Shown here: positions 30,376-56,308 of the stretch, in pieces
Numbering within the stretch: position 1 is the stretch's first letter
Layout of the letters: every line of letters starts with the position of its first letter
Assembly: GCF_964204645.1 (NCBI RefSeq)
Contig: NC_134035.1
Coordinates: forward strand, 6,719,101 to 6,783,100
Direction of reading: 5' to 3'
DNA: 64,000 nucleotides
Source: Tubulanus polymorphus
Taxonomy: Eukaryota > Animalia > Nemertea
Program-made: the position numbers and the translations under genes
Notes under the pieces: model-generated
What the model was told of the DNA's origin: nothing
Databases searched by the model: none
Seen by the model: only the letters and a program-made list of their open reading frames with translations

Positions 30376-30576
30376 AGTAATTAGAATATGTGGCTTTCAG
30401 GCCAGAGGACGAGAGGACGAGACACCACTCATCACCACAAGTAATTTTTTTCCTAACACTCATCACCACAAGTAATTTTTTTTCCTAATAAATGGGGGAG
30501 AATGAACACCAACTAGAAAACAATAATGTCAATAAGAATCAATATTATTGTCAATATTGTAAAAAATACATCGATA
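30376..30576 (+). repeat. Left terminal inverted repeat of the Polinton-like element
   Basis: Reverse complement of ~46838-47037; homology resumes at ~30864-30956 against ~46748-46840. Confidence 0.95.
30426..30494 (+). promoter_or_regulatory. Tandem CACTCATCACCACAAGTAATTTTTTT boxes + TAAATG initiator upstream of ZnF-PolB
   Basis: The same box recurs on the - strand at 35773-35810, 45988-46024, 46504-46541 and twice at 46920-46987, always leading into a start codon. Confidence 0.85.
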
Positions 30577-30800
30577 CATCTAATAAAACACGACATGAAA
30601 AAACTGCAAATCATATAAAAAATGTAATAGATTTTGAAACTCCAGAAAATTCCAATGAAAGAAAAGAACGATTAGAAAATATGAATGTGAATGAAATAAA
30701 ATGTGAAGTTTGTAATGAATTTATAGTAAAAAGGAAAAATAATAGACATCTCGAATCACAAAAACATTATAAAAATTTAAATAAAAATGTTTTGGATTAG
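30492..30800 (+). CDS. Two-C2H2 zinc-finger polypeptide, probably the frameshift-separated N-terminus of PolB
   Basis: CQYCKKYIDTSNKTRHEKTANH and CEVCNEFIVKRKNNRHLESQKH. Starts at TAAATG. The PolB frame is open from 30785. Confidence 0.75.
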   Translation: MGENEHQLENNNVNKNQYYCQYCKKYIDTSNKTRHEKTANHIKNVIDFETPENSNERKERLENMNVNEIKCEVCNEFIVKRKNNRHLESQKHYKNLNKNVLD

Positions 30801-30874
30801 AATATTTTGATAATAAACCTCAACAAGTAAAAGAATCAACTTCAAAAACTAAATCCATTTCAAATAAACCTTAC

Positions 30875-33800
30875 ATGGAAAATGTTAGAAATTATATTGA
30901 TTCACTAGAAATAAAAGATACAATTGAAATCTTAGAAACATTACATAGTAAAATTGGCCCTGCAGCTATTATATTTAGATTCTTTAAAGGTACAACAATA
31001 GAAGATTATAGTAAATTTAATGAAATAATAGAAAAAATACTAGATTTTATAACAGATGTTGAATATCCAAAAATTAGTATCTCTGGGAAAGTAAGTTTTA
31101 TAAAGTCAGAAGAAAAAATGGATTATAATATTCAAACACACTCTGAAGAAATAATTTCAAAAACACAAATAAAAGAGAAGTTAGAAAAAATATTAAATGA
31201 ATTTAAACGTCATATTGAAGAAAGATATTTTGAGGGTTCTGGCTTAACATTGAATGAAATTATATATTTAGATTTAAATGTTTATAATACAAAAAGAAAT
31301 AAAACATCAAAAAGTAATAAAATGTTTAAAAATGATTCAAACTTTATAACAGAAAAAGATATGAAAGCATCAAGTTATATCAAATTACCATTTATAACAA
31401 AAGCAGTAATAAATATTCAAAATGAAGATAATAAATGTTTTCTATGGTCAATTATTAGTTGCTTACATCCAACAGAAGAACATGTTTATAGAATAACAGA
31501 TTACCGGAAATATGAAACATTATATACAATTGATCAATATCCAGTAACTATAAAAATGATACCCAAAATAGAAAAAATTAATAATTTAAAAATAAATGTA
31601 TTCGAATTAATGCAATTACCAAAGACAAAAGGTGAAAATATTAAAGATTATACATTGGAAGCTTTATATTTAACAGAATATTATGATGATGAAAATGCTA
31701 TAGATTTGTTATATTACAAAAAAGATGAAAATGAACATTATATGTGGTTAAAACAAATTGATTTATTCTTTAGAACAGAAAGTGATCATCATCGTAAAAT
31801 TTATCTATGTAGAAAATGTTTATCTAAATTTATGACTGAGAATACATTATTAAAACATAAAGAATTATGTGATAATAAAGATTTTTGTAAATTAATAATG
31901 CCAACAGAAAAAGATTATAAATTGAAATTTACTAATCATAAATTTAAAAATATTGTTCCATTTGTAATTTATGGGGATTTTGAATCGTTGAATAAAGAAT
32001 TAACTGATCAAGATAGAAAAGAAATATATAACAAAAAGCAATTATTAAAATCAATGGATAAAGGAAATGATTTAAATGAAGACATAATACAAGACCCACC
32101 AATTATAAATACAATTAAAAAAGTTCATCAAAGAGCTGCTGCTTATGGAATTTATATAAAATCAAATTATCCCGAATTATATGAAAGTCAATATATTTCT
32201 TTTAGAGGTGAAAATGTAGTTAATGATTTTTGTGATAAAATTATTGAATTAGAAAGTGATTTTGCAAAATTATTAAACAAAAATAAAAGAATAGTTATGA
32301 CAAAAGAAGATGAAATTGATTTTAATTATGCAACTCATTGTTGTTATTGTGAAAAACGTTTTTATTCATTTGATAAAAGAGTTAGAGATCATGATCATTT
32401 AAATTCAAAATATCGTGGAGCTGCTCATGAAGATTGTAATTTACAAGCTAAAAAAGTAAATTTCGTACCAATATTATTTCATAATTTATCAGGCTATGAT
32501 ACCCATCTATTTATAAAACAATTATCGGGAAAGTTGGGCGCAATTAATCAAGAAATAGAAGAATATAATGCTATGAATGAAGAAAATGTAAGAAAATATG
32601 ATTTTAAACTATTAGCTAAAACATCTGAAAATTATATTTCATTTCAATTTGGTTGCATTAGATTTTTAGATTCTTATAGATTTCTAGCAAGTTCATTAGA
32701 TAATTTATCAAAATCATTAGTTGATAATGATTTTATTATAACTCGATATTATTATCCAAATGACCAAGATTTTAAATTATTGAGATATAAAGGCGCAATT
32801 CCTTATTCATTTTATAAAACACATGATGATTTTAATGTAACAGAATTATTAAAAGATCAATTTTATGATAAATTAAAAGAGGAGTATGTGAAAGACAAAG
32901 TTTTTGATAGAACATTAAATATTTGGAACCATTTTAAGATGAAAAATCATGGCGAATTAGTTGATTTATATTTAAAATCAGATGTTATGATATTGGCTGA
33001 CATATTTGAAAAGTTTAGAGAAGTTAATTTGAATCATTTTAATGTTGATCCTTGTTATTGCTACTCTAGTCCTGGTTTAACCTGGCAATGTGGTTTAAAA
33101 TATACAAATGTAGAATTAGATTTATTAAAAGAACCAGATATGGTTTTATTATTTGAAAAATCAATTAGAGGTGGAATTAGTGGTGTTATGGGAGATAGGT
33201 ATTTTAAAGCAAATGATGAATATAAATTATTATATATTGACGCCAATAATTTATATGGTTGGGCAATGATGCAACCTCAACCATATAAAAATTTTATATT
33301 AACAGAAGTTGAAAATGATGATAAAACTGATTGGGAAAGCGCAATTGCGAGTTTAAAAGATGAAGCACCAATTGGTTATTTCTTTGTAGTTGATTTAGAA
33401 TATCCTGAAAATATAATGTTTAAAACAAGAAACTTACCTTATTGCCCAGAACATTTAACTGTAGATGATAGTTATTTAAGTGAATACCAGAAGAAAATAA
33501 AACCGAAAGATCATGTTTTTACAGAAAAATTAATACTTACTCAAAATAATAAATATAATTATATTGTTCATTATAGAATGTTAAAATTTTATCTAAAACA
33601 AGGAATGAAATTAAAGAAAGTACATAGATATATTGAATTTAATCAATCGAAGTGGTTAGAAAAATATATAGATTTCAATACTCAACAGAGAACAATATCA
33701 AAAACTGATTTCGAAAAAGATTTTTTTAAATTGATGAACAATAGTTTTTATGGAAAAACTTGTGAAAACATAAGAAATAGAAATGATATTGAGTTAGTAA

Positions 33801-34489
33801 ATGATTATAAAAGATTAAGGCATTTACAATCAAGTCCTAGACATCTAGGAAATAAAAGATTTGAGGATTATTTGACCGCGGTAAAATTAAAAAGAACGTC
33901 AATGAAATTTAATAAACCCATTTTCATTGGTTCGACTGTTTTAGAAGTATCAAAGCTATTGATGTATGAATTCTATTACAATGTATTACAACCTCATTTT
34001 GGAGAAAAACACATAGAAATCTTATATTTTGATACTGACGCGTACATATTAAAGATAAAAACTGATAACATAACAAAAGACTTAAAAACATTGAAACATT
34101 ATTTCGACTTTAGCAATTACCCTAAAGATCATGAATTGTTTAGTAATGATAATAAAAAGATTCCTGGTAAGTTTAAAGATGAATTAGGGGGTGATGAAAT
34201 GATTGAATTTGTTGGGATAAGAAGTAAAATGTATAGTTACAGAACAAAAGATCATGAAGCTAAAAAGTTAAAAGGAATAACAAAACATGTGGTTGATAAA
34301 CATATAGAATTTCAAGATTATATAAAGTGTTTATATAAATCAATTGTAATGAAACACAAAATGAATTGTTTAAGATCAGAAGATCATGAGATGTACATTA
34401 ATGAAGTTGAAAAAACTAGTTTAAATCCATTTGATGATAAAAGGCATATTTTAGATGATGGTATAAAAACATTACCTTATGGCCATTAA
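30875..34489 (+). CDS. Protein-primed family B DNA polymerase (pPolB)
   Basis: ExoI YGDFES, ExoII FHNLSGYD, ExoIII YLKSDV, pol motifs YIDANNLYGWAM, KLMNNSFYGK, YFDTDA, KMY and KGI. Inserted EndoVII-like Zn finger (CCYC...VRDHDH...YRGAAHEDCN) and N-terminal NEDNKCFLWS...HY segment typical of Polinton PolB. Confidence 0.97.
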   Translation: MENVRNYIDSLEIKDTIEILETLHSKIGPAAIIFRFFKGTTIEDYSKFNEIIEKILDFITDVEYPKISISGKVSFIKSEEKMDYNIQTHSEEIISKTQIKEKLEKILNEFKRHIEERYFEGSGLTLNEIIYLDLNVYNTKRNKTSKSNKMFKNDSNFITEKDMKASSYIKLPFITKAVINIQNEDNKCFLWSIISCLHPTEEHVYRITDYRKYETLYTIDQYPVTIKMIPKIEKINNLKINVFELMQLPKTKGENIKDYTLEALYLTEYYDDENAIDLLYYKKDENEHYMWLKQIDLFFRTESDHHRKIYLCRKCLSKFMTENTLLKHKELCDNKDFCKLIMPTEKDYKLKFTNHKFKNIVPFVIYGDFESLNKELTDQDRKEIYNKKQLLKSMDKGNDLNEDIIQDPPIINTIKKVHQRAAAYGIYIKSNYPELYESQYISFRGENVVNDFCDKIIELESDFAKLLNKNKRIVMTKEDEIDFNYATHCCYCEKRFYSFDKRVRDHDHLNSKYRGAAHEDCNLQAKKVNFVPILFHNLSGYDTHLFIKQLSGKLGAINQEIEEYNAMNEENVRKYDFKLLAKTSENYISFQFGCIRFLDSYRFLASSLDNLSKSLVDNDFIITRYYYPNDQDFKLLRYKGAIPYSFYKTHDDFNVTELLKDQFYDKLKEEYVKDKVFDRTLNIWNHFKMKNHGELVDLYLKSDVMILADIFEKFREVNLNHFNVDPCYCYSSPGLTWQCGLKYTNVELDLLKEPDMVLLFEKSIRGGISGVMGDRYFKANDEYKLLYIDANNLYGWAMMQPQPYKNFILTEVENDDKTDWESAIASLKDEAPIGYFFVVDLEYPENIMFKTRNLPYCPEHLTVDDSYLSEYQKKIKPKDHVFTEKLILTQNNKYNYIVHYRMLKFYLKQGMKLKKVHRYIEFNQSKWLEKYIDFNTQQRTISKTDFEKDFFKLMNNSFYGKTCENIRNRNDIELVNDYKRLRHLQSSPRHLGNKRFEDYLTAVKLKRTSMKFNKPIFIGSTVLEVSKLLMYEFYYNVLQPHFGEKHIEILYFDTDAYILKIKTDNITKDLKTLKHYFDFSNYPKDHELFSNDNKKIPGKFKDELGGDEMIEFVGIRSKMYSYRTKDHEAKKLKGITKHVVDKHIEFQDYIKCLYKSIVMKHKMNCLRSEDHEMYINEVEKTSLNPFDDKRHILDDGIKTLPYGH

Positions 34490-35775
34490 AACATAAAATC
34501 AATATCATCAAACTCGAAATCGTTATTAGCTTCTTCATTTTCAGGTTCTTCTTCCATTCCATTTTTCTCATTTAAATAAAGTTCTATCTTGTTCCACATT
34601 TCATCTCGCTCTCTTTGTTTCTTTTTGTTTGTTAATTCATCAAATGGAATTATAATATCTAGGTTTAAATAATTTACAATCTTATTTAAAAAAAATTCAT
34701 AATTTATTGAATCTGTTATTCTATTTTCTAAATGATACATTAATATTTGTTTAAATATTTTTTTTATATTTTCCATATCTTCTTCTGTTAATTTAGGTTT
34801 TTCATAATAATCGTTAAATAATAAATATAAATACATTTTCTTTTGTTTTGTGTTAAATGTTGGTGGAATAATTGTTTTTATAATATCTTTTTGAGTTATT
34901 TCACCATTTTTATTTTCTATTATTTTCATTTTTTCAAGCCATTGCATATATTCTGGTGTATGATCTTCTATAGAAAATATTTTAAAAATTTCATCAAGAT
35001 AATTTAATTTTGGATCTATAAGAAAATTTCTAGTTTTTTCTTCATCCCATAAATTCTTTTGCCATCCACAATCAACACAAAATAACACAGTACCTTCTTG
35101 TCTTAAGGTCGCATAACTACATTGTGGACATTTTTGTTTATAATTTATTGGTAATAGATCTTCATTAAGCTCTTGGTATTTTCTTACGTTTTCTTTGTGT
35201 TTTATTGTTCTATTATGTAGATTTGAATTACTTGTTGTAATAATCAATTTACAATATTTACAATAATATGTTTTTCTTGTTAATTCATTATATTGTTTTT
35301 CTAACTTTTCAACTGTTTCTTCATTATCTGGTAACGTTTTCTCATATTTTATTTTTTCTAATAAATTATTTTTTCTTTCATTGAATTCAGTTTCAAATTT
35401 ATTAGAAATTTTATCTATGTGTGCTTTACTAAATTGATGATTCTCCCAATCTTCTATATTGTCAGGGCTATATTTTACTTGACAAGGCTCACAGAAATTA
35501 TTCTTTACATTATTCTTGTTATAAAATAAGAAAGGTCTTTTCCAAATAACTTCAGGTTCAACTTCAGCAGAATTATTATCAACATTAGCTGTTGCCCCAT
35601 TAATTCTACACTTCTCTGAATGTTTTTTAACATAATTTCTTGAGAATAATTGATTACATTTTGGACAGTTTATTTTAGGGGGTTTATAATTTTCATCATG
35701 TTTTTTCATATGTCGAGCCTTATTACTTTTTCTTAGAAGTTCACCACAAATTTCACATGCTATCTTCTCATCCAT
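34486..35775 (-). CDS. Multi-zinc-finger protein with a C-terminal poxvirus A2L/VLTF3-like late transcription factor domain
   Basis: Several N-terminal CxxC...H fingers, then CPQC-x13-CVDC, KTRNFLIDPKLNYL, EKPKLTEEDMENIKKIFKQI, SINYEFFLNKI and DEMWNKI, colinear with the VLTF3 pattern as I recall it. Confidence 0.72.
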   Translation of the reverse strand: MDEKIACEICGELLRKSNKARHMKKHDENYKPPKINCPKCNQLFSRNYVKKHSEKCRINGATANVDNNSAEVEPEVIWKRPFLFYNKNNVKNNFCEPCQVKYSPDNIEDWENHQFSKAHIDKISNKFETEFNERKNNLLEKIKYEKTLPDNEETVEKLEKQYNELTRKTYYCKYCKLIITTSNSNLHNRTIKHKENVRKYQELNEDLLPINYKQKCPQCSYATLRQEGTVLFCVDCGWQKNLWDEEKTRNFLIDPKLNYLDEIFKIFSIEDHTPEYMQWLEKMKIIENKNGEITQKDIIKTIIPPTFNTKQKKMYLYLLFNDYYEKPKLTEEDMENIKKIFKQILMYHLENRITDSINYEFFLNKIVNYLNLDIIIPFDELTNKKKQRERDEMWNKIELYLNEKNGMEEEPENEEANNDFEFDDIDFMF

Positions 35776-35835
35776 TTATTAGGGAAAAAAATTACTTGTG
35801 GTGATGAGTGTAATTTTTTTATGTTATAAATAATG
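35773..35835. promoter_or_regulatory. Compact divergent promoter between the VLTF3-like gene and the structural gene block
   Basis: A - strand box-type promoter sits back to back with + strand TAATTTTTTTATGTTATAAATAATG. Confidence 0.75.
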
Positions 35836-36629
35836 GTAGAATTAAAAGAATACAGAATATTTGTTGATTCAAGAAGACTTACAAATTATAAATCTCATAA
35901 TTTATTAGTTAAATTAGATAGAGAATTTAAGAATTGTGTAGATTTAAAATTAGTAAATATAAGTTTATGTAATTCTTTTTATAATATATCAGATAAAACT
36001 GATGAACATAGAAGCCTTCTTATTTTTGATAAACTTGAAAAAAATGGATTCAACTTATGCTTACACCAGGATTATATGATTTAGAAACATTAGCGCAAGA
36101 AATTAATAGAAAAGCTCGGATTAGATTAGGTAATGGTAATTCCAAATTTAATATTAAATTCATAAAAAGTGAGAGCTTTAATAAAATTAAAATAAAGCTT
36201 GATGATGAACTTATTAAACTTGATAAATCTGATCCATTGATGACAAGAAGACATACTTACACGGTAAAAAAACCTATAGCTAAACTATTAGGAATTACTC
36301 CAAATCAATTTGGTGGAAACAAACACGGTAACTCAAATATAATACCTTTTACACACTTTTATATTTATTGCAATTTAATCGATCCTACAAAAACATTCGA
36401 AGCAACTAAAGATACAACATGTAATTCTAGTATATTAAACATTTTACCGCTAAAAAATGTTAAACAATTTGGAACGCAAATAAATTATAATTTAACTGAA
36501 TGTGATTTCAAACCTTGTATTCCTAAATTTAATAATTTTAAATTAGAAATAAGAAATCATAATGGATACTTAATTGATTTGAACAACTTTCCTGTAATTT
36601 ATGAATTAGTTATAAGATGTAAAGAGTAA
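35833..36629 (+). pseudogene. Minor capsid protein (penton, single jelly-roll), split by a -1 frameshift at the A7 run 36038-36044
   Basis: N-terminal IFVDSRR...LVNISLCNSFYNI, central PGLYDLETLAQEIN, FYIYCNLI, and C-terminal FKLEIRNHNGYLIDLNNFPVIYELVI follow the Polinton/PLV penton pattern. One extra A joins ORFs 35833-36084 and 36057-36629. Confidence 0.75.
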
Positions 36630-36645
36630 TTTTTTCACTATATAA

Positions 36646-37002
36646 ATGAATATAACTGTTGGACCGAGTATATGTTTTGGGTTTGATTTTAAACGTGAGA
36701 AAGAAATGAAATTTAACATTAATGATGTAATAACACATATCAAAAATGTTGTATTTTCTAATGAAACAACATTTGAGTATGAAACAACAATTGATAAAGA
36801 AACTTTAAATGTAGAAAAGATTACTAATTTAATTAGAGAATCTTTAAGATTTTATGAATTAGATGAAGATTTTATAATCGATGATATTAAAAAAATAATA
36901 ATTGAAATATATACAAATGAAACTAGTAATAAAATAAATGTTGAAATAATCATAAATAAGTTAACTAAATATTTTGAAGATAGTAATTTTTTTGATAAAT
37001 AA
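36646..37002 (+). CDS. Hypothetical viral protein (118 aa)
   Basis: TAAATG start, tightly packed in the gene array; no motif recognised. Confidence 0.7.
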   Translation: MNITVGPSICFGFDFKREKEMKFNINDVITHIKNVVFSNETTFEYETTIDKETLNVEKITNLIRESLRFYELDEDFIIDDIKKIIIEIYTNETSNKINVEIIINKLTKYFEDSNFFDK

Positions 37003-37224
37003 ATGAGTGATAATAAGTGGATAATAACTGGATTATATAATGGTGCATTACTATCAGTTGGAACGGTTGGTTATTCAATGGTATTAAAAAAAGTATTCAA
37101 AATGGGAAGTGTTAATGTTGATAGATTTGATATAAATGATATTTTAAAGTTAACGTTAGCAGTTACTTTATCTAATTTAACTATTGATTATTTGGAAAAA
37201 CAAAAATATATTCCTCCCATATAA
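37003..37224 (+). CDS. Small hydrophobic viral protein (73 aa)
   Basis: TAAATG start abutting the previous stop; two hydrophobic stretches. Confidence 0.7.
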   Translation: MSDNKWIITGLYNGALLSVGTVGYSMVLKKVFKMGSVNVDRFDINDILKLTLAVTLSNLTIDYLEKQKYIPPI

Positions 37225-37248
37225 ATGCATAATTTTTTTGTTAAATAA

Positions 37249-37671
37249 ATGGCTTCTGCAATTATAACTATTATAGGATCGGCAATCGTTAACGCTTTAG
37301 CATTTACAGGTGGTGGTTATTTATTTAAACATATTGATAAAAATAGTTCATTAGGAGAACAAAGAAGACATAATTTAGCGTTAGAGAAATACAATAAAGC
37401 AGCAGAAGAATATAGAGAAAAAAGACAAAACTATATGGATTACATCAATAAAGAATTATATGATCAGAAGATTTCACATAGAGATTTTCAATCAGTTGAT
37501 GATGCAATGAGTTTATATAACGCAGTAACAAATAAAGAAAAATTACATCTATACAAACCCAAATTATCAGATTATTATACCCCAAGTAAAGAACAACAGA
37601 AATATGAAATAATATGGATTTTAGGTGGAACTGTTATTGTTATATTTGTTGCTTATAAGTTTACTAATTAG
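37249..37671 (+). CDS. Membrane-associated viral protein (140 aa)
   Basis: Hydrophobic N-terminus (MASAIITIIGSAIVNALAFTGGG), coiled coil, C-terminal TM (IIWILGGTVIVIFVAY). Confidence 0.78.
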   Translation: MASAIITIIGSAIVNALAFTGGGYLFKHIDKNSSLGEQRRHNLALEKYNKAAEEYREKRQNYMDYINKELYDQKISHRDFQSVDDAMSLYNAVTNKEKLHLYKPKLSDYYTPSKEQQKYEIIWILGGTVIVIFVAYKFTN

Positions 37672-37690
37672 TAATTTTTATTCTAAATAA

Positions 37691-38119
37691 ATGGAAGATA
37701 AAGTTGATAGTATTGATATTATTCCTCATGATATAAATAAAACTAAATTAAAAACATATTTAGAAAAACAAATATTAGAATTTGAAAGTGACTTAAAGAT
37801 AAAAAAGAAAAAATATTTAAAAAGTAAAATTATATATTATATAAGTGGTTCGGTTACAATTAGTTCTGTAATAACATTTCTAGCAATATTCAGTCCATTA
37901 ACACCTTTAGCTATATCAATTGGTGTATTAGGATTAAGTTCAAGTGTTTTAACTGGTATAAGTTCAAAATTAAATATAAAAAGTAATAAAGAAAAAATCA
38001 AAACTAATATAAAAGAAATTAATAAATTAAAGAATACACTAGATTATATAATAAGTTTAAATGGTCATATAACAGTTGAAGAACAAGATAAATTATTAAA
38101 AGAATTAATAAATTATTAA
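37691..38119 (+). CDS. Two-TM coiled-coil viral protein (142 aa)
   Basis: Hydrophobic hairpin IIYYISGSVTISSVITFLAIF-SPLTP-LAISIGVLGLSSSVLTGI flanked by charged helices. Confidence 0.78.
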   Translation: MEDKVDSIDIIPHDINKTKLKTYLEKQILEFESDLKIKKKKYLKSKIIYYISGSVTISSVITFLAIFSPLTPLAISIGVLGLSSSVLTGISSKLNIKSNKEKIKTNIKEINKLKNTLDYIISLNGHITVEEQDKLLKELINY

Positions 38120-38135
38120 TTTTTTAATTATATAA

Positions 38136-39551
38136 ATGGCAGATAGTTTTCCAAAAGCTTTCCAATATAATAAATCAATTAAATATAATATTCCAGCAAT
38201 AGATTTTAATAAAGATATTACATATAGAAATGAAGTTTTAGATTCATTAACTAATTTAGAAATTTATGTTACTGAAACTAATAATTTTAATGCAAAGATG
38301 GAAAATATATTTCATGTATATTTAATTAATTTTAAAAAATTGAAAGATGAAAAACAATGGTTATTAAAATCTAATATGAAGTATTGGCAGAACCAATTAA
38401 ATTTTGCTGTTTATTGTGCAACAACAGGATGTGGAATTAGTTGGAATGATCATTTGAATAATTCTAAATATAAATTAATTCAAAGTTTATTTAGATTTCA
38501 TACATACTTTCAAATCAGAATAATATTAAATGAATTAGAGTGTGCTTTACCAGGATCTAGGTATTTCAAAGAATTAGATAATAATATCAATTTATCAAAG
38601 TTTTATAAAATTTGTAATGAATTTAATATAGATATAAATAATTCTGATTTTAGAACAAAAATTGGAACAATAAGATCACTTCCTTGCCCTAAAAAGATTG
38701 CAGAATATTGTGCACTTCCCATACCATCTAATAGTTTTTATAATATCTGTAATAAAAAATTAGGTTATGGTAAAATAGAAACAAAGGATTTAGAAACATT
38801 AAATTTCAATAAATTACCAAAATTTTATGATAATTTAAAACAAGAAAACAATAATGGTTGGGTTTATTTTATTTTAGAAAATAGTGAAGGTTTTACTAAA
38901 TCAGGTATAGAAAGAATAAATCAATCTATTAGAACTTATTTGATTTGTATTCTAGGATCACAAGTTGAAACAAGATCACCGATAATTGGAAATTTGAATA
39001 CATCATTCGATACACAAAAACAGTTTAAAGTTTTATTTGAAGATTCCATACATAATGATAAAAATAGATCGATTCCAGAAAACATTATAAGATATCAAAA
39101 TTATTTAGATAAATCTCATGTAAGACTTAATTATTGTATAGGCCCTAATCTATTAATTATTTCTAATGATTTAGTATTAAAGATGGGAAACATAATTGGT
39201 TATAATAATCTAATTAAAACTGCAACAATAAATAATTCATTTGGGTTAAATGATATAAATAAAAAGATTATTACTGCTCCAAAATTAATGGAAGGTGAAA
39301 AAAATAAAAAACACATTCAATCAACTGAAACTAAAACTAAGAATATTAAATTAAATAATGATTCTAAAATAAAAGATTATAATACATCAGAAAATAATAG
39401 AACTGATAATGGTGTCATATGGCACCCACACGGTGATATTCAACATGATATAATTAAACTAAATGATGATAATAAATCCCATGAAAATACTAAATTAGCT
39501 ATAACTTGTATAGGAATTGTAATCGGAGGAATATTATATTTTAAATTTTAA
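38136..39551 (+). CDS. Large viral protein with C-terminal membrane anchor (471 aa), function unknown
   Basis: Intact ORF with TAAATG start, Cys-containing core (QLNFAVYCATTGCGIS) and C-terminal TM (LAITCIGIVIGGILYF). Confidence 0.82.
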   Translation: MADSFPKAFQYNKSIKYNIPAIDFNKDITYRNEVLDSLTNLEIYVTETNNFNAKMENIFHVYLINFKKLKDEKQWLLKSNMKYWQNQLNFAVYCATTGCGISWNDHLNNSKYKLIQSLFRFHTYFQIRIILNELECALPGSRYFKELDNNINLSKFYKICNEFNIDINNSDFRTKIGTIRSLPCPKKIAEYCALPIPSNSFYNICNKKLGYGKIETKDLETLNFNKLPKFYDNLKQENNNGWVYFILENSEGFTKSGIERINQSIRTYLICILGSQVETRSPIIGNLNTSFDTQKQFKVLFEDSIHNDKNRSIPENIIRYQNYLDKSHVRLNYCIGPNLLIISNDLVLKMGNIIGYNNLIKTATINNSFGLNDINKKIITAPKLMEGEKNKKHIQSTETKTKNIKLNNDSKIKDYNTSENNRTDNGVIWHPHGDIQHDIIKLNDDNKSHENTKLAITCIGIVIGGILYFKF

Positions 39552-39568
39552 TTTTTTTTATTATATAA

Positions 39569-40999
39569 ATGGATGTAGAAGGTGTAGAAGATATTGGAAT
39601 GGATCCTTTGGATGAACCTGGTATAACTGATGAACAACCACCTGATTTAGATGAAACAAGTTTTAATGATGGTAATGAACCAGAATATAACAATAATTTA
39701 AATATGCCTGATTATATTAAAAATGCTTAATCACAATTAAATCCTGAAAATTTAGACCCAGATTTAGTAAAACAAGATTTAGATAATTTAAACAAAATAC
39801 CTAAATTAGAAGATTTAATTGAAAAATCTAATTTTAACATAAATGATGAAGACGTTGGACTTTTAGCAGATCAATTAAAATTTTTAGATAATGGTAAATG
39901 TTATTATCGTTTGAAAGGTGATTATTATATTGATATCACTTATAAAAATAATAAAAATAAAATATTATCAGAATCAACTTTAGAAAAATTAAAACCAGAT
40001 AGAATTAAAATAATAAGTAATAGTAATGAAATAACTGATGTTACACAAAAAGAAATAGATGATAATATAGATGTATTTAAACAAAGAATTAATGAATTAT
40101 TTGAAATAATCAAAAAGAAATCAGAAACAGAAACAACTTCTGAACAGAATATAACTTCCAAAACTAGTAAACTTAGATCAAATAAAGTTCCAATTGAAAA
40201 ACTTTTACCGAATGGATTACTTGATGCAACAGATCAAGAATTAGAAGATTTAGATATATTTTCTGATAAAGCAATTAGAGAAATTATTAGTATAAGACTT
40301 GCATCTGATAAAATTGCGCATGATAAAAGTATAAGAGATTTTAAAATTAGAACTTTAGAAAAAGAATTAACTGATAAAAATAAAGAAATAGAACAATTAA
40401 AGTCTGATTTAGATCATCAAGTAATTGATGAAATAGAATATAGGCAAAAAGAATTACGTTTAGAAAAAGAAAAAGATGATTTAGAATATAACATAGAATT
40501 ACAAAAAGAAGAAATTAAATTATTATTAAAATCATATGATTATAATATTAATAGATTAAAAGTTATTTTTAAAGATTTGTTGATTAAACCAAATTCTGAA
40601 ATATCATTAAAAGATAGAATAAGATTATTATTTAAATTAGAAGGAATAACAATTCTTTCAATTCTAACAGCTGTAACTATGTTATTTACAACAATTGGTT
40701 TAGCTATATCAAATGCTTTGAAATCTACTCCTCCTCCAAATAAACCGGATAAACCTCCAGGTAATAATTCTATACAAGATAAAGTTAAAGATGGTTTAAA
40801 GAAATTAGCAAAATATTTATGGGAACTATCAAAGAAATCTGCTGCAGCATTACCAGGAGTTATTGCATCAATTGTTGGTTTTATATTGAAATCTGCAGGA
40901 AACATTATTAACTTTGCTGCTGAACATATTATTTTATTTTTAATCACAGTTGTAAGTGCTATTATTTTTGGGTTAGTGAATATGATAAAAAATAAATAA
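39569..40999 (+). pseudogene. Coiled-coil protein with hydrophobic/amphipathic C-terminal helices (~476 codons), one premature stop at 39728-39730
   Basis: The TAAATG start at 39569 is in frame with ORF 39911-40999; a single TAA interrupts it. C-terminal GITILSILTAVTMLFTTIGLAI...ALPGVIASIVGFIL...IILFLITVVSAIIFGLV. Confidence 0.8.
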
Positions 41000-41019
41000 T
41001 TAATTTTTTTGTTAAATAA

Positions 41020-42267
41020 ATGAGTGGGAGTTATATAAGTCCTTCGAAGAATCATAGAATATCTAATGCTATTAAAGCAGAAAGATTACATCATATAATT
41101 ACTCATAACCCTTCAAATATTAATCCCGATGAAACTTTATATGTTAGAATTCCTAGATTAACACAAAATACTTTTTATGTTCCAAACAGTATTTATTTAT
41201 CAGCTGATATAAAAGTAATCGGTAATAATAATAATTATGTTGTTGATAATGTTGGAAGATATTTGATTAAAAAGTTAACAATAAAGATTGGTCCAGAAAC
41301 AGTTTTCTCATTAGATGATTATAATTTATTTATGCATTATAAAGATTTATGGTTAACTAAAGAAAACAGAAATAATATGATATTTCAGGGTATTCAATCA
41401 GAAAACCAAAATAAATTAAGATCAGAAGCTAATAGCGCAATATTAACAAATGATGTAGATAAATTGATAAAAAGTATATATGGAAGCAAATATAAAATTC
41501 CATTAGACTTTGAATTGATAAATAATAATGCACCTTTATATAAATACGCAATTCAAGAAGATATTATATTTGAGATAACATTTGCTCCTGTAAATGAAAT
41601 TGTATTATCTAGCGTTAATAAAGATATGAGTTATAAATTATCGAATATATGTTTAGAATATAATACAGTAACTGATGAAAATATTGCTAGAACAATTCAA
41701 ACTCAATACAATCAAGGATTTTCATTATTATATGATTATATTGATAAATTTAAAACTGTAACTATTAATGCAAATGATGAAATAATTAATGAGAATATTA
41801 ACTTTCCTAGAAGATCTAATAAAGGTATATTAATATTTTTTACTATTGGAACGTATACTAATGGCGCAATAAATGTTGATAATTATTATAATCCTGAAAT
41901 AACAAAAGTAGAAATAACTATCGAAGGTATAGCAAATAAAATATTTTGTCAAGGAATGAGAATGATAGATCAATGGGTAGAAATTAAAAAACATTTTATG
42001 AATGAAAAAATAAAATCATTTGAAAATTGTAACATTAATCAAATTGATTATTATACCGGTAATAAATATGCATTATGGTTAGATTTTAGAACAACAGAGG
42101 ATAATTCATTACATGGTTCTGGAAAAAAACTACAAAACACAAAAGATGGAATACAATTATTCATGAAAAAGAATAAAGGAATCAAAAATTTTAAAATGCA
42201 CATTTATATTATATCTGACGCGCAATTAAATATTGTAAATTCACAATTAGATAGTATTCAATATTAG
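41020..42267 (+). CDS. Probable major capsid protein (double jelly-roll)
   Basis: 415 aa, beta-strand-rich, no TM. Segments such as LYVRIPRL, NVGRYLIKKLTIKIG, YKIPLDF, YKLSNICLEY and YALWLDFR resemble Polinton-like MCPs, and it is the only candidate of this size in the element. Confidence 0.72.
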   Translation: MSGSYISPSKNHRISNAIKAERLHHIITHNPSNINPDETLYVRIPRLTQNTFYVPNSIYLSADIKVIGNNNNYVVDNVGRYLIKKLTIKIGPETVFSLDDYNLFMHYKDLWLTKENRNNMIFQGIQSENQNKLRSEANSAILTNDVDKLIKSIYGSKYKIPLDFELINNNAPLYKYAIQEDIIFEITFAPVNEIVLSSVNKDMSYKLSNICLEYNTVTDENIARTIQTQYNQGFSLLYDYIDKFKTVTINANDEIINENINFPRRSNKGILIFFTIGTYTNGAINVDNYYNPEITKVEITIEGIANKIFCQGMRMIDQWVEIKKHFMNEKIKSFENCNINQIDYYTGNKYALWLDFRTTEDNSLHGSGKKLQNTKDGIQLFMKKNKGIKNFKMHIYIISDAQLNIVNSQLDSIQY

Positions 42268-42297
42268 AAATATAAAGTTAAAATTAAGCGTATATAA

Positions 42298-43425
42298 ATG
42301 GGTGGTAAAAAATCTCCTAATACTAAAGAACAATATTTAAGAAATTTATATTACAACCCTGAGAGTTCGGTTGCTTATTCTTCTACCAAACATATATGGC
42401 GTCAAGTAAAACAAGATAAATTAGATAAGATAATCCCACAAAATTTAGTTAAATATAAAGATATAAATGAATTTATGTTAGAACAACCAACATATACAAC
42501 ACATAAAAAAATTGTTAGAAAATATAAAACTCGTAAAACTATGGTAAGTTATGTAGATCAACAGTGGCAAGGAGATTTAATTGATATAAAAAATGTTAAG
42601 AAAGATAATGATGATTATTGGTGGTTATTGAATATAATTGATATTTTTAGTCGTTATGTATGGAGCTTCCCACTTTATAGAAAAGATGCTGTACAAACAT
42701 CAAATGTTTTAAGAAAATTTCTTTCGGATGATAAACTAAAACCAGAAAAAATACAATTTGATGATGGAAAAGAATTTGATAATTCACTTGTTCATGGACT
42801 TTTAGATTTTCATAATATTAAATATTTTTCAACAAAATCGGATAAAAAAGCAGCAGTTGTTGAACGATTTAATAGAACATTAAGAACAAGAATGTGGAAA
42901 TATTTTACAGCAAATAATACTTTTAAATGGATTGATGTTTTACCAAAATTGATAGAAGGATATAATACTTCTTATCATTCTTCTATTGGAATGAAACCTA
43001 TTGATGCTAGAAAACCTGAAAATGCTGAAATTGTTTGGAATAATTTATATGGAGCATTTCTTGTAGATGATTTTGGTGAACCTAAATTTAAAGTTGGTCA
43101 AAATGTTAGAATTTCTAAGTATAAAAAGATATTTGACAAAGGATACGATCGAAATTTTACTAGAGAAATATATAAAATAAAAAAGGTAATAACAACAAAA
43201 CCATATGTCTATAAATTAGAAGATTTAGATGGTGAAGAAGTTGATGGTTACTTTTACGAAGAAGAATTAAGTTTAACTACTGAAAATCTAGAACAAGAAT
43301 ATAAAATTGAAAAAGTACTAAAAACAAAAACTGTTAAAATAAAAAAATATTCTTTAGTAAAATGGGTTGGATGGCCAGATAAATTCAATGAATGGATATT
43401 ATCAAGTAAAATTAAAAATATATAA
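42298..43425 (+). CDS. Retroviral-like (RVE) DDE integrase with C-terminal chromodomain
   Basis: WQGDLID, IIDIFSRY, QFDDGKEF, KAAVVERFNRTL, YNTSYHSSIGMKP, FKVGQNVRIS, and chromodomain YKIEKVL...LVKWVGWPDKFNEWI. Confidence 0.96.
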   Translation: MGGKKSPNTKEQYLRNLYYNPESSVAYSSTKHIWRQVKQDKLDKIIPQNLVKYKDINEFMLEQPTYTTHKKIVRKYKTRKTMVSYVDQQWQGDLIDIKNVKKDNDDYWWLLNIIDIFSRYVWSFPLYRKDAVQTSNVLRKFLSDDKLKPEKIQFDDGKEFDNSLVHGLLDFHNIKYFSTKSDKKAAVVERFNRTLRTRMWKYFTANNTFKWIDVLPKLIEGYNTSYHSSIGMKPIDARKPENAEIVWNNLYGAFLVDDFGEPKFKVGQNVRISKYKKIFDKGYDRNFTREIYKIKKVITTKPYVYKLEDLDGEEVDGYFYEEELSLTTENLEQEYKIEKVLKTKTVKIKKYSLVKWVGWPDKFNEWILSSKIKNI

Positions 43426-44034
43426 ATGAATAAGGAATTATTTATATTTGAGCCTCATAATATGTTAATTTCTGGTGTAACAAATTGTGGAAAAACTTAT
43501 TTTATATTAAATTTATTAGAAACTATTTACAAAAACTATTTTGATAATATAGTATTATTTTGTCCAACATATGAATTTAATCAAACTTATGATAGAAATA
43601 TTACTAGAAATAATAAATTTATTATATTAGATCCTAAAACAGTAAAAGAAAATTTAGATAATTGTATAAAAATAGCAATTGATATTTATAAAGGATCAAA
43701 TACATTATTTATCATAGATGATTGTGCTAATCTACATGATTCAAAAGTTAGAGAAAGTGAGTTATGTTATTTAGCTTTTTCTGGTAGACATTTTGGGATA
43801 ACAACTTGGGTTTTAAATCAAAAATATAATTCAATTGTTAAAAACTTTAGAGAAAACATTAGATTTCTAGTTTTATTCTACAATAAAGATAGAAAATCGA
43901 TGAAAAATGCACTTGAGGAAAATGATATTATTCCACATGATTTACATAATGAATATATGGATAAGTTGAAAAATATTAAAAGATCAAAATTACTATTTAG
44001 ATTACAACACCCATTTAAATATGAATTTATTTAA
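43426..44034 (+). CDS. A32-like FtsK/HerA DNA packaging ATPase
   Basis: Walker A GVTNCGKT, Walker B LFIIDD, arginine finger GRH, conserved Q (VLNQ). Confidence 0.93.
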   Translation: MNKELFIFEPHNMLISGVTNCGKTYFILNLLETIYKNYFDNIVLFCPTYEFNQTYDRNITRNNKFIILDPKTVKENLDNCIKIAIDIYKGSNTLFIIDDCANLHDSKVRESELCYLAFSGRHFGITTWVLNQKYNSIVKNFRENIRFLVLFYNKDRKSMKNALEENDIIPHDLHNEYMDKLKNIKRSKLLFRLQHPFKYEFI

Positions 44035-44312
44035 ATTCAACTAGCTTGTTAATCTAATTGAATTCTAGTTACATTCTAGTTGAATTCTAGTTGTTAGTAG
44101 TTGAAACAAAAATCAACTAGATTTAACAATATTTCAACTAGCTTGTTAATCTAGTTTAATTCTAGTTGAATTCTAGTTGAATTCTAGTTGTTAGTAGTTG
44201 AAACAAAAATCAACTAGAATGTAACTAGAAATAAACAAAAACAACAATATTTCAACTAGCTTGTTAATCTAGTTGAATTCTAGTTACATTCTAGTTAAAT
44301 TCTAGTTGCAAC
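44035..44312. repeat. Intergenic array of 11 bp (T)TCTAGTTGAA(T) iterons in both orientations, three higher-order units
   Basis: TTCAACTAGCTTGTTAATCTA(G/A)TT starts at ~44036, ~44132 and ~44250, each followed by tandem TTCTAGTT(GA/AC/AA)A copies. Confidence 0.9.
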
Positions 44313-44339
44313 AACACAACTAATTTGTTTGTTATATAA

Positions 44340-44945
44340 ATGGGAGGTGAAAAGAAAATAAAATCTAAAAATGGTGATGTTCCAATTGAAAAAACTTTAG
44401 ATGATTTAGGAATAACAGAAACAAAATTAACTCCAGATGATGGTGCTTTAAATAATGTTACAACAAATAATAGTTATGAATATTATCTTTATTGTAAACA
44501 TCAATTAGAAATATTAATAGCATCTGGAAAATGTAAAAATTTTGTCGGTAAAAATTTAACTTATAATGAATTAGATACAATGAAATCAGATGAAATTATT
44601 AGATTATTTAAGATTTATGAATCCGCGAGAACAGCTAGAATTAATGACGCGATATCAGAAAATGTAGTAAAAGGTTATAGTAAATTATGTAATTATATAC
44701 TACCAATTGAAGATGAAAATAGATTATATTCCGATTTAAAAAATGATTATTTAGTTATGACTGAATTAAATAAATGGATTGGATATTTATCATTTCAATT
44801 AGGTGGATTTATGACATTATTATCAACTGGAGTTATAACATTTTCAAATATTGAAAGTAAAAATATTTCTATAATAAATGAGCGAGGTGAAAGAAGTGAA
44901 GGAATTACCTGTGAAGAAAAAACCGAGAACTCAGAAACAAATTGA
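44340..44945 (+). CDS. Hypothetical viral protein (201 aa)
   Basis: TAAATG start, intact ORF, late hydrophobic segment WIGYLSFQLGGFMTLLSTGVITF. Confidence 0.78.
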   Translation: MGGEKKIKSKNGDVPIEKTLDDLGITETKLTPDDGALNNVTTNNSYEYYLYCKHQLEILIASGKCKNFVGKNLTYNELDTMKSDEIIRLFKIYESARTARINDAISENVVKGYSKLCNYILPIEDENRLYSDLKNDYLVMTELNKWIGYLSFQLGGFMTLLSTGVITFSNIESKNISIINERGERSEGITCEEKTENSETN

Positions 44946-45246
44946 ATGGTCTCGACAATTAGGAATTAAATCACAAGAATATAAAAAAGCTGTAAAAGAA
45001 AAAATAAGTAATAAAAATGTTAATAAAAATGGTGAAAATATTGTTATTTCTACTCCTTCTGATAGTAGAATATTTGATAAATATTTATATTTTACAGTTG
45101 GATTTGTAATTGTATTCATTTTGATTGGGTGTAATTGGTATAAGAAATCAAATAAAATTCATGATATTAGTAATTCTGAAACAACTGCTATCAAAAATGA
45201 AAGTACTTCTGAAATTCCAAAATTTATAATAAAAAAAATGGATTAA
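44878..45246 (+). CDS. Basic N-terminus + single-TM viral protein (122 aa)
   Basis: TAAATG start overlapping the previous gene; KKKPRTQKQ; TM YLYFTVGFVIVFILIGC. Confidence 0.75.
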   Translation: MSEVKEVKELPVKKKPRTQKQIEWSRQLGIKSQEYKKAVKEKISNKNVNKNGENIVISTPSDSRIFDKYLYFTVGFVIVFILIGCNWYKKSNKIHDISNSETTAIKNESTSEIPKFIIKKMD

Positions 45247-45315
45247 TATTTTAGAAAAAAAAACAAAAAAATAATTAAATATCTCACTGTGGGGCAATTA
45301 AATTATCCAGATAAG

Positions 45316-45990
45316 TCATTTCGGATCCTTGATATCAAATTCCTCAACGTATCGTTCATTATTTGGATTATTGTTCCATAATTCAATAAATTTTTTTGTT
45401 TTTTCCAGTTGATCTAAATATAATTTCATATCTAGTTTGTTAGATTTAATTATATTTTCTTTCTTTTCTAAAGGTCTTAAATTTCTCCAGTTCCAGATTA
45501 GCTTCTTATCATATTCATCATTCATATCAAATTTAGAAATCGGCAACACATGATCAATATGAAAGTATTCACCATAATTATCTATATTCATTTTATCATC
45601 GAATTGAAATATAATCCATGATTTGAGAAATTCATCTGAACAACCCAACAAATTAGTTAATGTTTCTGAATGCGTTTCTTTGTTGAATAATTGTGTTGAT
45701 CTAGACCTTAAACATTGTTTTAATCTAAAATTAAGATCTGTTTTATATTTTTCTCTCATATATTTTGTCATATAATCATTATAAGATTCTCTATTATCTT
45801 CTCGATATTGTTTGGTATATAGTTTAAAACAAGTTTTACAGCAATTTTTAAAACCATCTTTGCTAATCTTACGCTTACTAAATTCTGTAAATGATTTATC
45901 TAATTCACATTTAGAACACTTCTTGTAGTATATGTTTATAACACCAGTGTTATTTGTAATATTGATAGTTTGTGGTTGTTCTGGTTCCAT
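45316..45990 (-). CDS. Zn-finger + HNH endonuclease (giant-virus homing-nuclease type)
   Basis: KKCSKC...EF...KDG...CKTC, then FHIDHVLPIS...NWRNLRPLEKKENIIKSNK. Confidence 0.85.
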   Translation of the reverse strand: MEPEQPQTINITNNTGVINIYYKKCSKCELDKSFTEFSKRKISKDGFKNCCKTCFKLYTKQYREDNRESYNDYMTKYMREKYKTDLNFRLKQCLRSRSTQLFNKETHSETLTNLLGCSDEFLKSWIIFQFDDKMNIDNYGEYFHIDHVLPISKFDMNDEYDKKLIWNWRNLRPLEKKENIIKSNKLDMKLYLDQLEKTKKFIELWNNNPNNERYVEEFDIKDPK

Positions 45991-46179
45991 TTATTAGGAA
46001 AAAAAATTACTTGTGGTGATGAGTATGAAAAAAAAAAAAATTGAATATCTCACTACTTTTGTCTATCACTGTGTGGGTGCTGTTTATGGCACCATCTATG
46101 TGGAGCAATTAAATTGTCCAGATAAGTCATTTCGGATTCTAGATATTCATTATTTTTATTAATTTATTTTTTAAAAAAT

Positions 46180-46506
46180 TTAATCAACAATTTCTAAATC
46201 ATGATGACCGTCTTCATTTTTCCCATGATATATTATTTTAAATCCTACTAAATCTTTCAATTCCTCCATACTCAATGAAACCCATTTATCGGGTAAAAAC
46301 ACTTTAAATTCTCGCGATGTACTAACATTACAGTAGCTTAAATTAGCTGATACTTTCTCTCCATATTTAGTTTTTATCTTTTCTAATTTCAATATTTTAT
46401 GTTCAATTTCTTTTGTAACATCAACTAACTTTTTTATTTCAAATTGTTTTTTTGCTGGTTTTATTCTGTTATTTATTGTTGCTAAGAATGCTTTTCTATC
46501 TCCCAT
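46180..46506 (-). CDS. Small basic protein (108 aa), possibly OB-fold nucleic-acid binding
   Basis: Same promoter box as the PolB unit; TKYG...KVFLP beta-strand pattern. The fold is inference only. Confidence 0.65.
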   Translation of the reverse strand: MGDRKAFLATINNRIKPAKKQFEIKKLVDVTKEIEHKILKLEKIKTKYGEKVSANLSYCNVSTSREFKVFLPDKWVSLSMEELKDLVGFKIIYHGKNEDGHHDLEIVD

Positions 46507-46747
46507 TTATAAGGAAAACAAATTACTTGTGGTGATGAGTGGGGATTACTTCCCCCTATATAACAAGCACGCTATTAACCGTTCTCACCCAAGCCTCACA
46601 GCATCTATTTATCCGGGTACAGTTGACACGCAATCACTGTACTACAGTAATAGCACACACATTAATAACCGTTCTCAGTAGAGACTCACTGTATCGATCT
46701 ATCCACACGCAGCTGTTGTTACGCGCACTCACTGTTTATGTGTGTCA

Positions 46748-47037
46748 CAATTTTACTACGTAATATTTCTAAAATTTCAATTGTATCTTTTATTTCTAAT
46801 GAATCAATATAATTTCTAACATTTTCCATGTAAGGTTTATCGATGTATTTTTTACAATATTGACAATAATATTGATTTTTATTGACATTATTGTTTTCTA
46901 GTTGGAACTCACTCTCTCCCATTTATTAGGGAAAAAAATTACTTGTGGTGATGAGTAGGAAAAAAAAATTACTTGTGGTGATGAGTGGTGTCTCGTCCTC
47001 TCGTCCTCTGGCCTGAAAGCCACATATTCTAATTACT
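46748..47037 (-). repeat. Right terminal inverted repeat of the Polinton-like element
   Basis: Matches the left end except for a 290 bp internal gap. Encodes a short ZnF-PolB N-terminal fusion ORF (46719-46922). Confidence 0.93.
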
Positions 47038-47330
47038 TAAATATAGTAGAAAATTGCATAGCCGGCACTTCAGCTGTGTGGACATGTTCAAATCCCCTTT
47101 TTTTGAAATCAACATCAATTTTTCTAAGACGACTAAATTAAACATACCCGGTTCTGAAAAACTGATTAAGATGATTATTTGAGATTTCCTGTAAACATAT
47201 TAATTGATGATATCTCAACTGCTGAAAAGTGTCTGCAATACTGGTTCTGTTGATGGATACAGCAGTAATTAGTAGAACTGCTGTACCGGTGGCTCAAGTC
47301 CATTATAGCATTGAATATTTCCAGCAGAGA

Positions 47331-47522
47331 TGTGATGGAATATGTCCATCAGTCGTTTTCTATGTTGTAACTAGAGGGTGCTGCCCTCTCTCTCGAAAAT
47401 ACAGAACAATAGGTGATTGTGTTAATATCTTTTGTCCGCCTTTTTACTGGTTTTTGGGCTCTCAGAGTCGATATTTGGAGGAAACTTCTACTGTGGAACA
47501 GGCAGAATAGGACCTCGTTACA
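47331..47522 (+). repeat. 5' LTR (192 bp)
   Basis: TGTGATGGAA...CCTCGTTACA. I see one substitution and one 2 bp CT-repeat indel relative to the 3' LTR. Confidence 0.96.
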
Positions 47523-47524
47523 TC

Positions 47525-47544
47525 TGGTGGCAGCGTAGTGGGAT
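47525..47544 (+). other. Primer binding site, tRNA-Leu type
   Basis: TGGTGGCAGCGTAGTGGGAT is close to the complement of a tRNA-Leu 3' end (ATCCCACCGCTGCCACCA). Confidence 0.75.
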
Positions 47545-47750
47545 TTGATTGTAAAAAACCAGTTGAAATTGAGTTGAAGCGGTGAACACGTTTTTCTCCG
47601 TTTAGTCTGTGTAAATTACGGTTACTTTGCGTACTTTTTACCTACTTCGTTAATTCCTAGTTCATATTTAGTATTGTTTTAGTGCCTGTTTCCCTAATTT
47701 TATTTGCGGTTCTGTATTTTCTGTGTCATTTCTACAATAGAATATCAATT

Positions 47751-48830: not shown

Positions 48831-48909
48831 GGGCAATGGAAACCCCATCAGGAAATAGTCCCCCTGTACCGCTGTATATACCCCCCCCGCAAGACGTAGG
48901 AAAAATCGG

Positions 48910-56114: not shown

Positions 56115-56308
56115 TGTGATGGAATATGTCCATCAGTCGTTTTCTATGTTGTAACTGGAGGGTGCTGCCCTCTCTCTCTCGAAAATACAGAACAATAGGT
56201 GATTGTGTTAATATCTTTTGTCCGCCTTTTTACTGGTTTTTGGGCTCTCAGAGTCGATATTTGGAGGAAACTTCTACTGTGGAACAGGCAGAATAGGACC
56301 TCGTTACA
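56115..56308 (+). repeat. 3' LTR (194 bp)
   Basis: Follows the PPT and is followed by the TSD GAGA. Confidence 0.96.

Follow-up and report, generated by a model that had tools for sequence, protein, structure and literature searches.

The window (the whole stretch of 64,000 nucleotides that was analysed) contains a Polinton, an element of the Maverick/polintovirus type (Table 1). Its identity is confirmed by a protein-primed family B DNA polymerase (pPolB), a retroviral-type (RVE) integrase and a packaging ATPase, encoded between terminal inverted repeats and flanked by a 6-bp target-site duplication (TAAATA at 30370-30375 and 47038-47043). The left terminal repeat takes in the promoter and the start of the polymerase gene, which is split in this copy into a zinc-finger piece (30492-30800, 102 codons) and a main ORF (30875-34489). 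With respect to the structural genes, the minor-capsid candidate was assigned through the Sputnik minor capsid cluster of the ESM Atlas (0.93, flagged weak), and the 415-aa ORF that is likely the major capsid protein gave no match in Pfam, PDB sequences or PHROGs. No cysteine protease was recognised among the 17 ORFs scanned with Pfam, no RNA polymerase or capping enzyme was recognised in the element, and no VLTF-2 homolog was found in its six frames (best E = 0.075). Three genes are broken here by decay or assembly error, namely the polymerase at its N-terminus (near 30800), the minor-capsid candidate (~36060-36084) and the gene at 39569-40999 (stop at 39728); the frames of the VLTF3 fusion, the integrase, the ATPase and the capsid candidate are uninterrupted.

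Table 1. Features of the Polinton and of its VLTF3 fusion gene, in window coordinates
Feature	Position	Strand	Basis or remark
Polinton (Maverick/polintovirus), 16,662 bp, ~24% GC, termini AGT...ACT	30376..47037		terminal repeats, target duplication
Left terminal inverted repeat	30376..30581	+	76 bp perfect, then ~90%
Protein-primed family B DNA polymerase	30492..34489	+	PF03175, 67.6 bits
Zinc-finger/VLTF3 fusion gene, 429 aa, intact	34486..35775	-	tail-to-tail with polymerase gene
Acidic C-terminal tail of fusion protein	34489..34560	-	sequence
VLTF3/A2 domain, residues 210-405: C4 ribbon and helical body with INYEFFLNKI block, terminal Trp	34561..35148	-	profile, language-model and fold searches
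N-terminal half of fusion protein, four Cys/His clusters	35149..35775	-	read from sequence
Fusion gene promoter: ACTCATCACCACAAG box, T-run, TAAATG	35773..35809	-	sequence repeats
Probable minor capsid gene, overlapping pieces 35833-36084 and 36057-36629	35833..36629	+	ESM Atlas lead
Small/membrane-type gene block (36646, 37003, 37249, 37691, 38136, 39569)	36627..41022	+	each with T-run and TAAATG
415-aa ORF, likely major capsid protein	41020..42267	+	inferred from size and position
Retroviral-type (RVE) integrase, C-terminal chromodomain	42298..43425	+	PF00665, 37.7 bits; start TAAATG
A32-like packaging ATPase	43426..44034	+	PF04665, 52.5 bits; start TAAATG
HNH/endonuclease VII-like gene	45316..45990	-	boxed promoter at start
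Right terminal inverted repeat	46833..47037	-	67-codon copy of polymerase gene start, 46719-46922

To the left of the element we observe SPT5 exons on the plus strand (10841-11098, ~11400-11800, ~19800 and 26520-26690), indicating an intron-rich animal host; the exon with the CTR repeat matches human SPT5 (E = 3.5e-24). The Polinton lies ~3.7 kb downstream of the apparent last exon of SPT5 and is not intronic. Broken retroelement-like frames with reverse-transcriptase/RNase H-like content, which we take to be DIRS-like, are found at 22900-25300 and 15300-16400. Just to the right of the Polinton (47400-56300) are the remains of a Gypsy-like LTR retrotransposon (gag, protease, reverse transcriptase, RNase H, integrase), with a direct repeat of 137 bp present in identical copies at 47386 and 56172.

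The C-terminal half of the 429-aa fusion protein is a VLTF3/A2-family domain. The sequence-only reading had proposed this from its motifs; all motifs that it quoted are present, including the CxxC-x13-CxxC zinc ribbon (C216-x2-C219-x13-C233-x2-C236; 35068-35130), whose four cysteines align across all 21 alignment rows with the exception of one position. Pfam, ESM Atlas and fold searches bear the identification out. Residues 210-405 alone match PF04947 (Pox_VLTF3) with 27.7 bits (E = 2.6e-6; gathering cut-off 25 bits), with PF08792 not among the Pfam matches for these residues. In a Pfam scan of the whole 429-aa protein the Pox_VLTF3 match is absent and a U1 zinc finger is the sole match, indicating that such fusion genes are probably under-counted. 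Pox_VLTF3 clusters make up 27 of the 30 ESM Atlas matches (best score 0.95), and our own profiles score the domain at 30.0 (chordopoxvirus), 29.2 (entomopoxvirus) and 20.1 bits (mimivirus-type), against maxima of 8.3, 6.1 and 10.2, respectively, over ~200 shuffles.

Searching 1.84 billion representatives with phmmer returned four matches, two of which (P0002, 48%; P0003, 40%) are zinc-finger fusions of the same build as the 429-aa ORF. A third (P0005) is an entomopoxvirus-type VLTF3 (27% over residues 6-190, E = 3.6e-5) whose relatives carry the name VLTF-3 in three betaentomopoxviruses. The fourth, P0004, has the Polinton fusions as its nearest phmmer relatives (E = 3.5e-6) and formed a very long branch in the first tree; P0004/P0008 are stand-alone, very divergent VLTF3-like proteins of 281 aa that have a single ribbon and are found on contigs of 6-13 kb. 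A word-index protein search with the VLTF3 domain gave 1,086 candidates and no significant match, and PDB sequence searches with the domain or the entomopoxvirus alignment as query gave no meaningful match. A broad profile search placed only Megavirales-type proteins among the best 120 of 1,525 matches, and in a scan of IMG/VR for the word INYxFFLxKI the VLTF3 genes among the 120 of ~190 loci listed are all from chordopoxviruses.

The N-terminal half of the fusion protein carries four Cys/His clusters (C7/C10/H22/H26, C37/C40/H52/C56, C95/C98/H113/H119 and C172/C175/H187/H193). The fourth is a U1-type finger (Pfam zf-U1, 28.9-30.3 bits, cut-off 22) and resembles the N-terminal fingers of the element's polymerase, as measured on the polymerase N-terminus of a related element, L240 (41% over 39 aa, E = 1e-6), which suggests that the fusion probably arose by assembly within the element. 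At the other end of the protein, the acidic tail is lacking in P0003.

Across the three elements in which it was found, the fusion ORF is open and fused in every case, and all three Polinton-type proteins, at 38-49% identity, retain the INY block, the terminal Trp and the four cysteines of the ribbon. L240 shows the same tail-to-tail arrangement of polymerase and VLTF3 genes; its polymerase (~78-79% identity to the window copy) is one 1,336-aa ORF starting with U1-type fingers. L241 contributes the fusion gene only. Next to the terminus of L240 lies a splice acceptor followed by a GRAF-type RhoGAP exon (6330-6508, E = 1.2e-6), indicating that this element, too, is integrated in an animal genome even though its record is a metagenomic one. 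A doubled repeat of the GAGAGGxCGA type is common to its end and to that of the window element. No relative of the fusion, the capsid candidate or the polymerase was confirmed in IMG/VR scans, and prokaryote genomes contained no relative of the fusion. A Polinton-type polymerase fragment in a contig titled as a Sedimenticola MAG (L482), with no VLTF3 ORF evident after the fragment, is probably host-animal DNA in the bin.

Between the window element and L240, the VLTF3 domain is 49% and the polymerase 79% identical, corresponding to ~3 times faster divergence of the domain. The codon model gives an omega of 0.24 for the domain (2dL = 12.9 versus omega 1), and the Nei-Gojobori ratio is 0.98; the codon-model fit for the polymerase was saturated and was set aside. 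These comparisons indicate that selection on the VLTF3 domain is present and is looser than on the polymerase.

With respect to the position of the domain within the VLTF3 family, we assembled by motif scans a comparison set of 37 chordopoxvirus, 5 entomopoxvirus, ~200 Megavirales-type and 120 Pimascovirales-type loci or proteins, the latter two labels being ones that we take from motifs rather than from record titles. The careful tree is based on 33 representatives (from 53 rows) and 219 columns, with P0004 excluded after the first tree and with poxvirus, Polinton, Megavirales-type and Pimascovirales-type rows but none from asfarviruses, egovirus, mriyavirus, Polinton-like viruses (PLVs) or fish poxviruses. 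The three Polinton proteins form one clade (96/85), sister to the pair of chordopoxviruses and entomopoxviruses (95/89), and poxviruses plus Polintons are split from the rest with 100/100; long branches meet in this tree, and its bootstrap is to be read as unsettled. Removal of either poxvirus subfamily leaves the join of Polintons and poxviruses at 99. Approximately unbiased (AU) tests reject a grouping of the Polinton proteins with the Pimascovirales-type (P = 0.014) or the Megavirales-type (P = 0.011) forms and do not reject their grouping with entomopoxviruses (P = 0.39) or chordopoxviruses (P = 0.25). Furthermore, the distance from the ribbon to the motif is 120-126 aa in the Polinton-type proteins and 118-123 aa in poxviruses, versus 128-156 aa in the other groups. 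Plain similarity barely separates poxvirus from Megavirales-type VLTF3s, with mean identities of 22.5% (entomopoxvirus), 20.6% (chordopoxvirus), 19.8% (Megavirales-type) and 12.9% (Pimascovirales-type) and hhalign profile-profile scores of 72 (entomopoxvirus), 82 (chordopoxvirus) and 80 (mimivirus-type).

Taken on these sequence comparisons, a placement of the fusion's VLTF3 domain towards the poxviruses within the family is supported, which says less than that the gene was taken from a poxvirus; in the best tree the domain is sister to the Poxviridae, with groupings inside them not rejected by the AU tests. The earlier impression that the INYxFFLxKI block looks closer to poxviruses than to mimivirus/phycodnavirus forms agrees with the tree, the AU tests and the ribbon spacing, and draws little from plain similarity; the Polinton proteins do join the Poxviridae in the phylogeny, but in the best tree from outside.

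The AlphaFold model of the domain was built from the 21-row alignment, poxvirus rows included (pLDDT 88.5); a single-sequence fold (pLDDT 54) was set aside. The best match of the alignment-based model in BFVD is cowpox VLTF3 (E = 6e-7, TM 0.67), followed by entomopoxvirus and other VLTF3s, and VLTF3s make up most of the named rows among the best 33, with the caveat that the rank of poxviruses is not independent of the poxvirus rows in the model's alignment. In the PDB structure search, TFIIB, cyclin and Brf-type chains come out on top (best Z = 6.7, rmsd 3.5, 91 aligned), below the level of 8 that the tool considers meaningful. Of the two folds that the sequence-only reading had named for comparison with a model, that of viral VLTF3s is matched and the TFIIB/cyclin match is weak; the predicted structure is suggestive of a TFIIB/cyclin-like body after the zinc ribbon.

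The gene starts of the element share a pattern of their own. Of the 17 gene 5' ends, 16 read TAAATG, and the remaining one, at the minor-capsid candidate gene, reads TAAATAATG behind a T-run. A T-run precedes the start at 13 of the 17, with TAATTT(T/G)TT 5-9 bases upstream, a count (13 versus 0.135 in the control) that is post hoc, since the pattern was derived from the same sequences. When starts are defined mechanically as the first ATGs of ORFs of at least 65 aa, TAA precedes ATG at 15 of 20 starts versus 35 of 621 other ATGs of the element (P = 3e-14), and at 43 of 1,708 ATGs in the host flanks; of the five starts that deviate, three belong to inner pieces of split genes, one is an antisense shadow and one reads TAAATAATG. 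TAA-ATG was also found at 3/3 starts in the relatives L240 and L241 and at 16/39 starts in AT-rich chordopoxvirus loci, with 5/76, 19/145, 28/104 and 18/120 starts (7-27%) in AT-rich viral control loci. The TAA is the stop codon of an upstream ORF in only 2 of 16 cases (37003 and 43426), and TAAATG also heads divergent and terminal genes that have nothing upstream.

In vaccinia virus, the late promoter is described as a T-rich core, a 5-7 bp spacer and TAAAT(G/A) overlapping the start (PMC5294985), late genes of salmon gill poxvirus are described as marked by TAAATG (PMC4542343), and slippage at the TAAAT initiator is reported to give 5' poly(A) leaders (PMC6211774). Judged by their sequence, the gene starts of the element match this published poxvirus late promoter, a helper-type late motif. 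As to the two roles that the sequence-only reading had raised for the fusion, retargeting to element promoters or a decoy, this pattern, which that reading had not noticed, favours a part in the element's own transcription. TAAATG may alternatively be a group-wide Polinton trait unrelated to poxviruses.

Two repeat families directly precede ORF starts. The 15-bp box ACTCATCACCACAAG is present in 7 copies, two per terminal repeat and one before each of three inner minus-strand genes (30427-30492, 35773-35809, 45988-46024, 46504-46540 and 46920-46986), so that five genes carry it, the fusion gene and those starting at 30492, 45990, 46506 and 46922. It could be bound by the zinc fingers of the element, or be a promoter cassette that has been copied. 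The box is absent from L240, and a two-step cascade built on this boxed promoter class is therefore unsupported across relatives. In addition, a TATA-box word, TATATAAATG, occurs at six starts. RNA polymerase II starts 25-30 bp downstream of a TATA box (PMC5294985), for which a TATA-like word abutting the ATG would leave no room. AATAAA words show no depletion in the coding strands (69 in 14.8 kb versus 67.2 +/- 4.5 in synonymous shuffles), which fits cytoplasmic expression and is weak evidence for it.

A zinc-finger-fused relative of VLTF3, together with poxvirus-type starts at nearly all genes, points to a helper-transcribed parasite. Our preferred reading, to which we would give slightly less than an even chance, is that the element is an endogenous parasite of poxvirus factories, transcribed by a co-infecting poxvirus-like helper to which it would bring its own TFIIB-like factor, a relation resembling that of mavirus to CroV. 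The helper's cytoplasmic RNA polymerase would read the element's promoters in the viral factory, and its post-replicative machinery would start transcripts inside TAAAT, where slippage would add a 5' poly(A) leader. The element's VLTF3 domain would join the helper's late complex, replacing or standing beside the helper's A2, while the zinc fingers would tether the fusion to element DNA and so draw the helper's polymerase onto the Polinton's capsid and replication genes. There are precedents in virophages, which carry the late promoters of their helpers (as described in PMC10945749), and in PLVs reported from entomopoxvirus occlusion bodies (PMC11296320). Against this reading, integration of the element requires a nuclear stage, and plain similarity to Megavirales-type VLTF3 is about equal to that to the poxvirus forms. 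The wider claim that animal genomes harbour integrated poxvirus virophages, that is, late-promoter Polintons with a finger-guided VLTF3 that would seize the helper's polymerase, is one we hold a little more loosely still. If it is true, these elements would serve animals as inducible agents against poxviruses and would mark the presence, in their hosts, of poxvirus-like viruses as yet undescribed.

Polintons are integrating elements usually regarded as nuclear, and a helper-free life in the nucleus is the first alternative to be weighed. Host RNA polymerase II would then transcribe the element and the fusion would be a self-encoded activator, with fingers that bind DNA and a TFIIB-like body and acidic tail that recruit the polymerase; TAAATG would be an AT-rich TATA/initiator-like or inherited motif. 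The six starts with TATATAAATG, the acidic tail and the cyclin/TFIIB-like predicted fold would all suit such a scheme. However, with a TATA box directly adjoining the ATG, transcription would start inside the ORF, the coding strands (14.8 kb) show no depletion of AATAAA, with 69 occurrences, and the acidic tail is missing from P0003. A T at -3 is also a poor context for eukaryotic translation starts, unless a poly(A) leader replaces it. Some PLVs are reported to replicate alone (PMC10945749), as this alternative would have it; on balance we consider it unlikely.

The same promoter and tree evidence would also be expected of a helper-dependent element whose fusion acts as a decoy, binding the helper's late factors or polymerase and lowering its late transcription without activating element genes, with the proposed effect that the host is protected or resources are freed. 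The helper already has A2, so an extra copy would be needless for activation, and the VLTF3 domain changes more rapidly than the polymerase, a pattern seen in conflicts. The domain does not look truncated or dead, though, with ribbon, INY block and Trp kept in 3/3 proteins, and the fingers are also kept, which suggests targeting over sequestration; we regard a decoy as improbable. That the VLTF3 piece was captured long ago and is now a mere scaffold for the zinc fingers, with TAAATG reflecting tight gene packing, a stop adjoining the start codon, in an AT-rich genome, would fit the Nei-Gojobori ratio of 0.98 and the 7-27% of TAA-ATG starts in AT-rich viral loci anyway, but is very unlikely given the omega of 0.24 under the codon model, an ORF open and fused in 3/3 elements and TAAATG starts whose TAA is rarely an upstream stop and which also head divergent and terminal genes.

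We compared the element with known systems. Poxvirus VLTF-3 (vaccinia A2L and its entomopoxvirus counterparts; PF04947/PF08792) is the nearest sampled clade, at an identity of only 18-24%, and has in common with the fusion the CxxC-x13-CxxC ribbon, the compact spacing, an INYxFFLxKI-type block, the terminal Trp and the predicted fold. Unlike it, the fusion has four zinc fingers and an acidic tail, branches outside the pair of chordopoxviruses and entomopoxviruses and resides in a 17-kb integrating element in which no RNA polymerase or VLTF-2 is recognised. Mavirus and the EMALEs of Cafeteria, as portrayed in PMC10945749, are likewise host-integrated elements with pPolB, RVE integrase and a helper-type late promoter; they differ in their protist host, mimivirus-family helper, TCTA motif and experimentally shown reactivation, and the portions of that article consulted mention no late factor of their own. 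The entomopoxvirus-associated PLVs are also small Polinton-like viruses and proposed poxvirus parasites, but are described as ~12 kb in size, with a cysteine protease and without an RVE integrase (PMC11296320); the terms VLTF, promoter and TAAAT each occur 0 times in the main text of that report. The cytoplasmic virus-like elements pGKL1/2 of yeast are linear and AT-rich with a TAAAN initiator that resembles the TAAAT of poxviruses, and differ in having their own RNA polymerase and capping enzyme and no capsid or integrase, according to the account in PMC6211774.

The presence of VLTF3 in Polintons is already known. The sequence-only reading rightly placed the gene outside the canonical Polinton set, but VLTF3 homologs had been reported in stony-coral polintoviruses (PMC11131425, citing Krupovic and Koonin 2016), as 'mimivirus VLTF3-like' genes in MELD viruses (PMC8502044) and in PLV groups (10.64898/2026.06.19.733378), and VLTF3 is elsewhere described as a Nucleocytoviricota hallmark that is not detectable outside the phylum (PMC11253617). 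The coral and MELD elements share with ours a VLTF3 homolog, a Polinton-type genome and an origin in animals or animal datasets; those reports point to giant-virus donors, and the sections of their text that were searched contain no analysis of lineage, fusion or promoter. Compared by description, their VLTF3s may or may not be of the same family. Term searches in the accessible text of 10.1101/2024.03.23.586382, PMC12917281, PMC11071296 and 10.64898/2026.10.13.758929 returned nothing on this element type. Neither poxvirus late promoters nor a poxvirus-side, finger-fused VLTF3 in animal Polintons was found in the literature searched, with supplements and subscription papers mostly outside the search. 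A VLTF3 lineage near the poxviruses, a finger fusion conserved among relatives and poxvirus-type late promoters across the element were not found in print and appear to be new.

There is hardly any experimental means of deciding whether animal Polintons live autonomously as nuclear viruses or depend as satellites on large DNA viruses, and a late promoter at nearly every gene, combined with the element's own late factor, would name the kind of helper. The fusion also adds a deep branch to VLTF3. Finally, in the gap that separates the ATPase gene from the ORF after it (44036-44336) we observe three copies of an 86-bp palindrome-rich repeat with CTAG/AATT words, possibly an origin or hairpin array.
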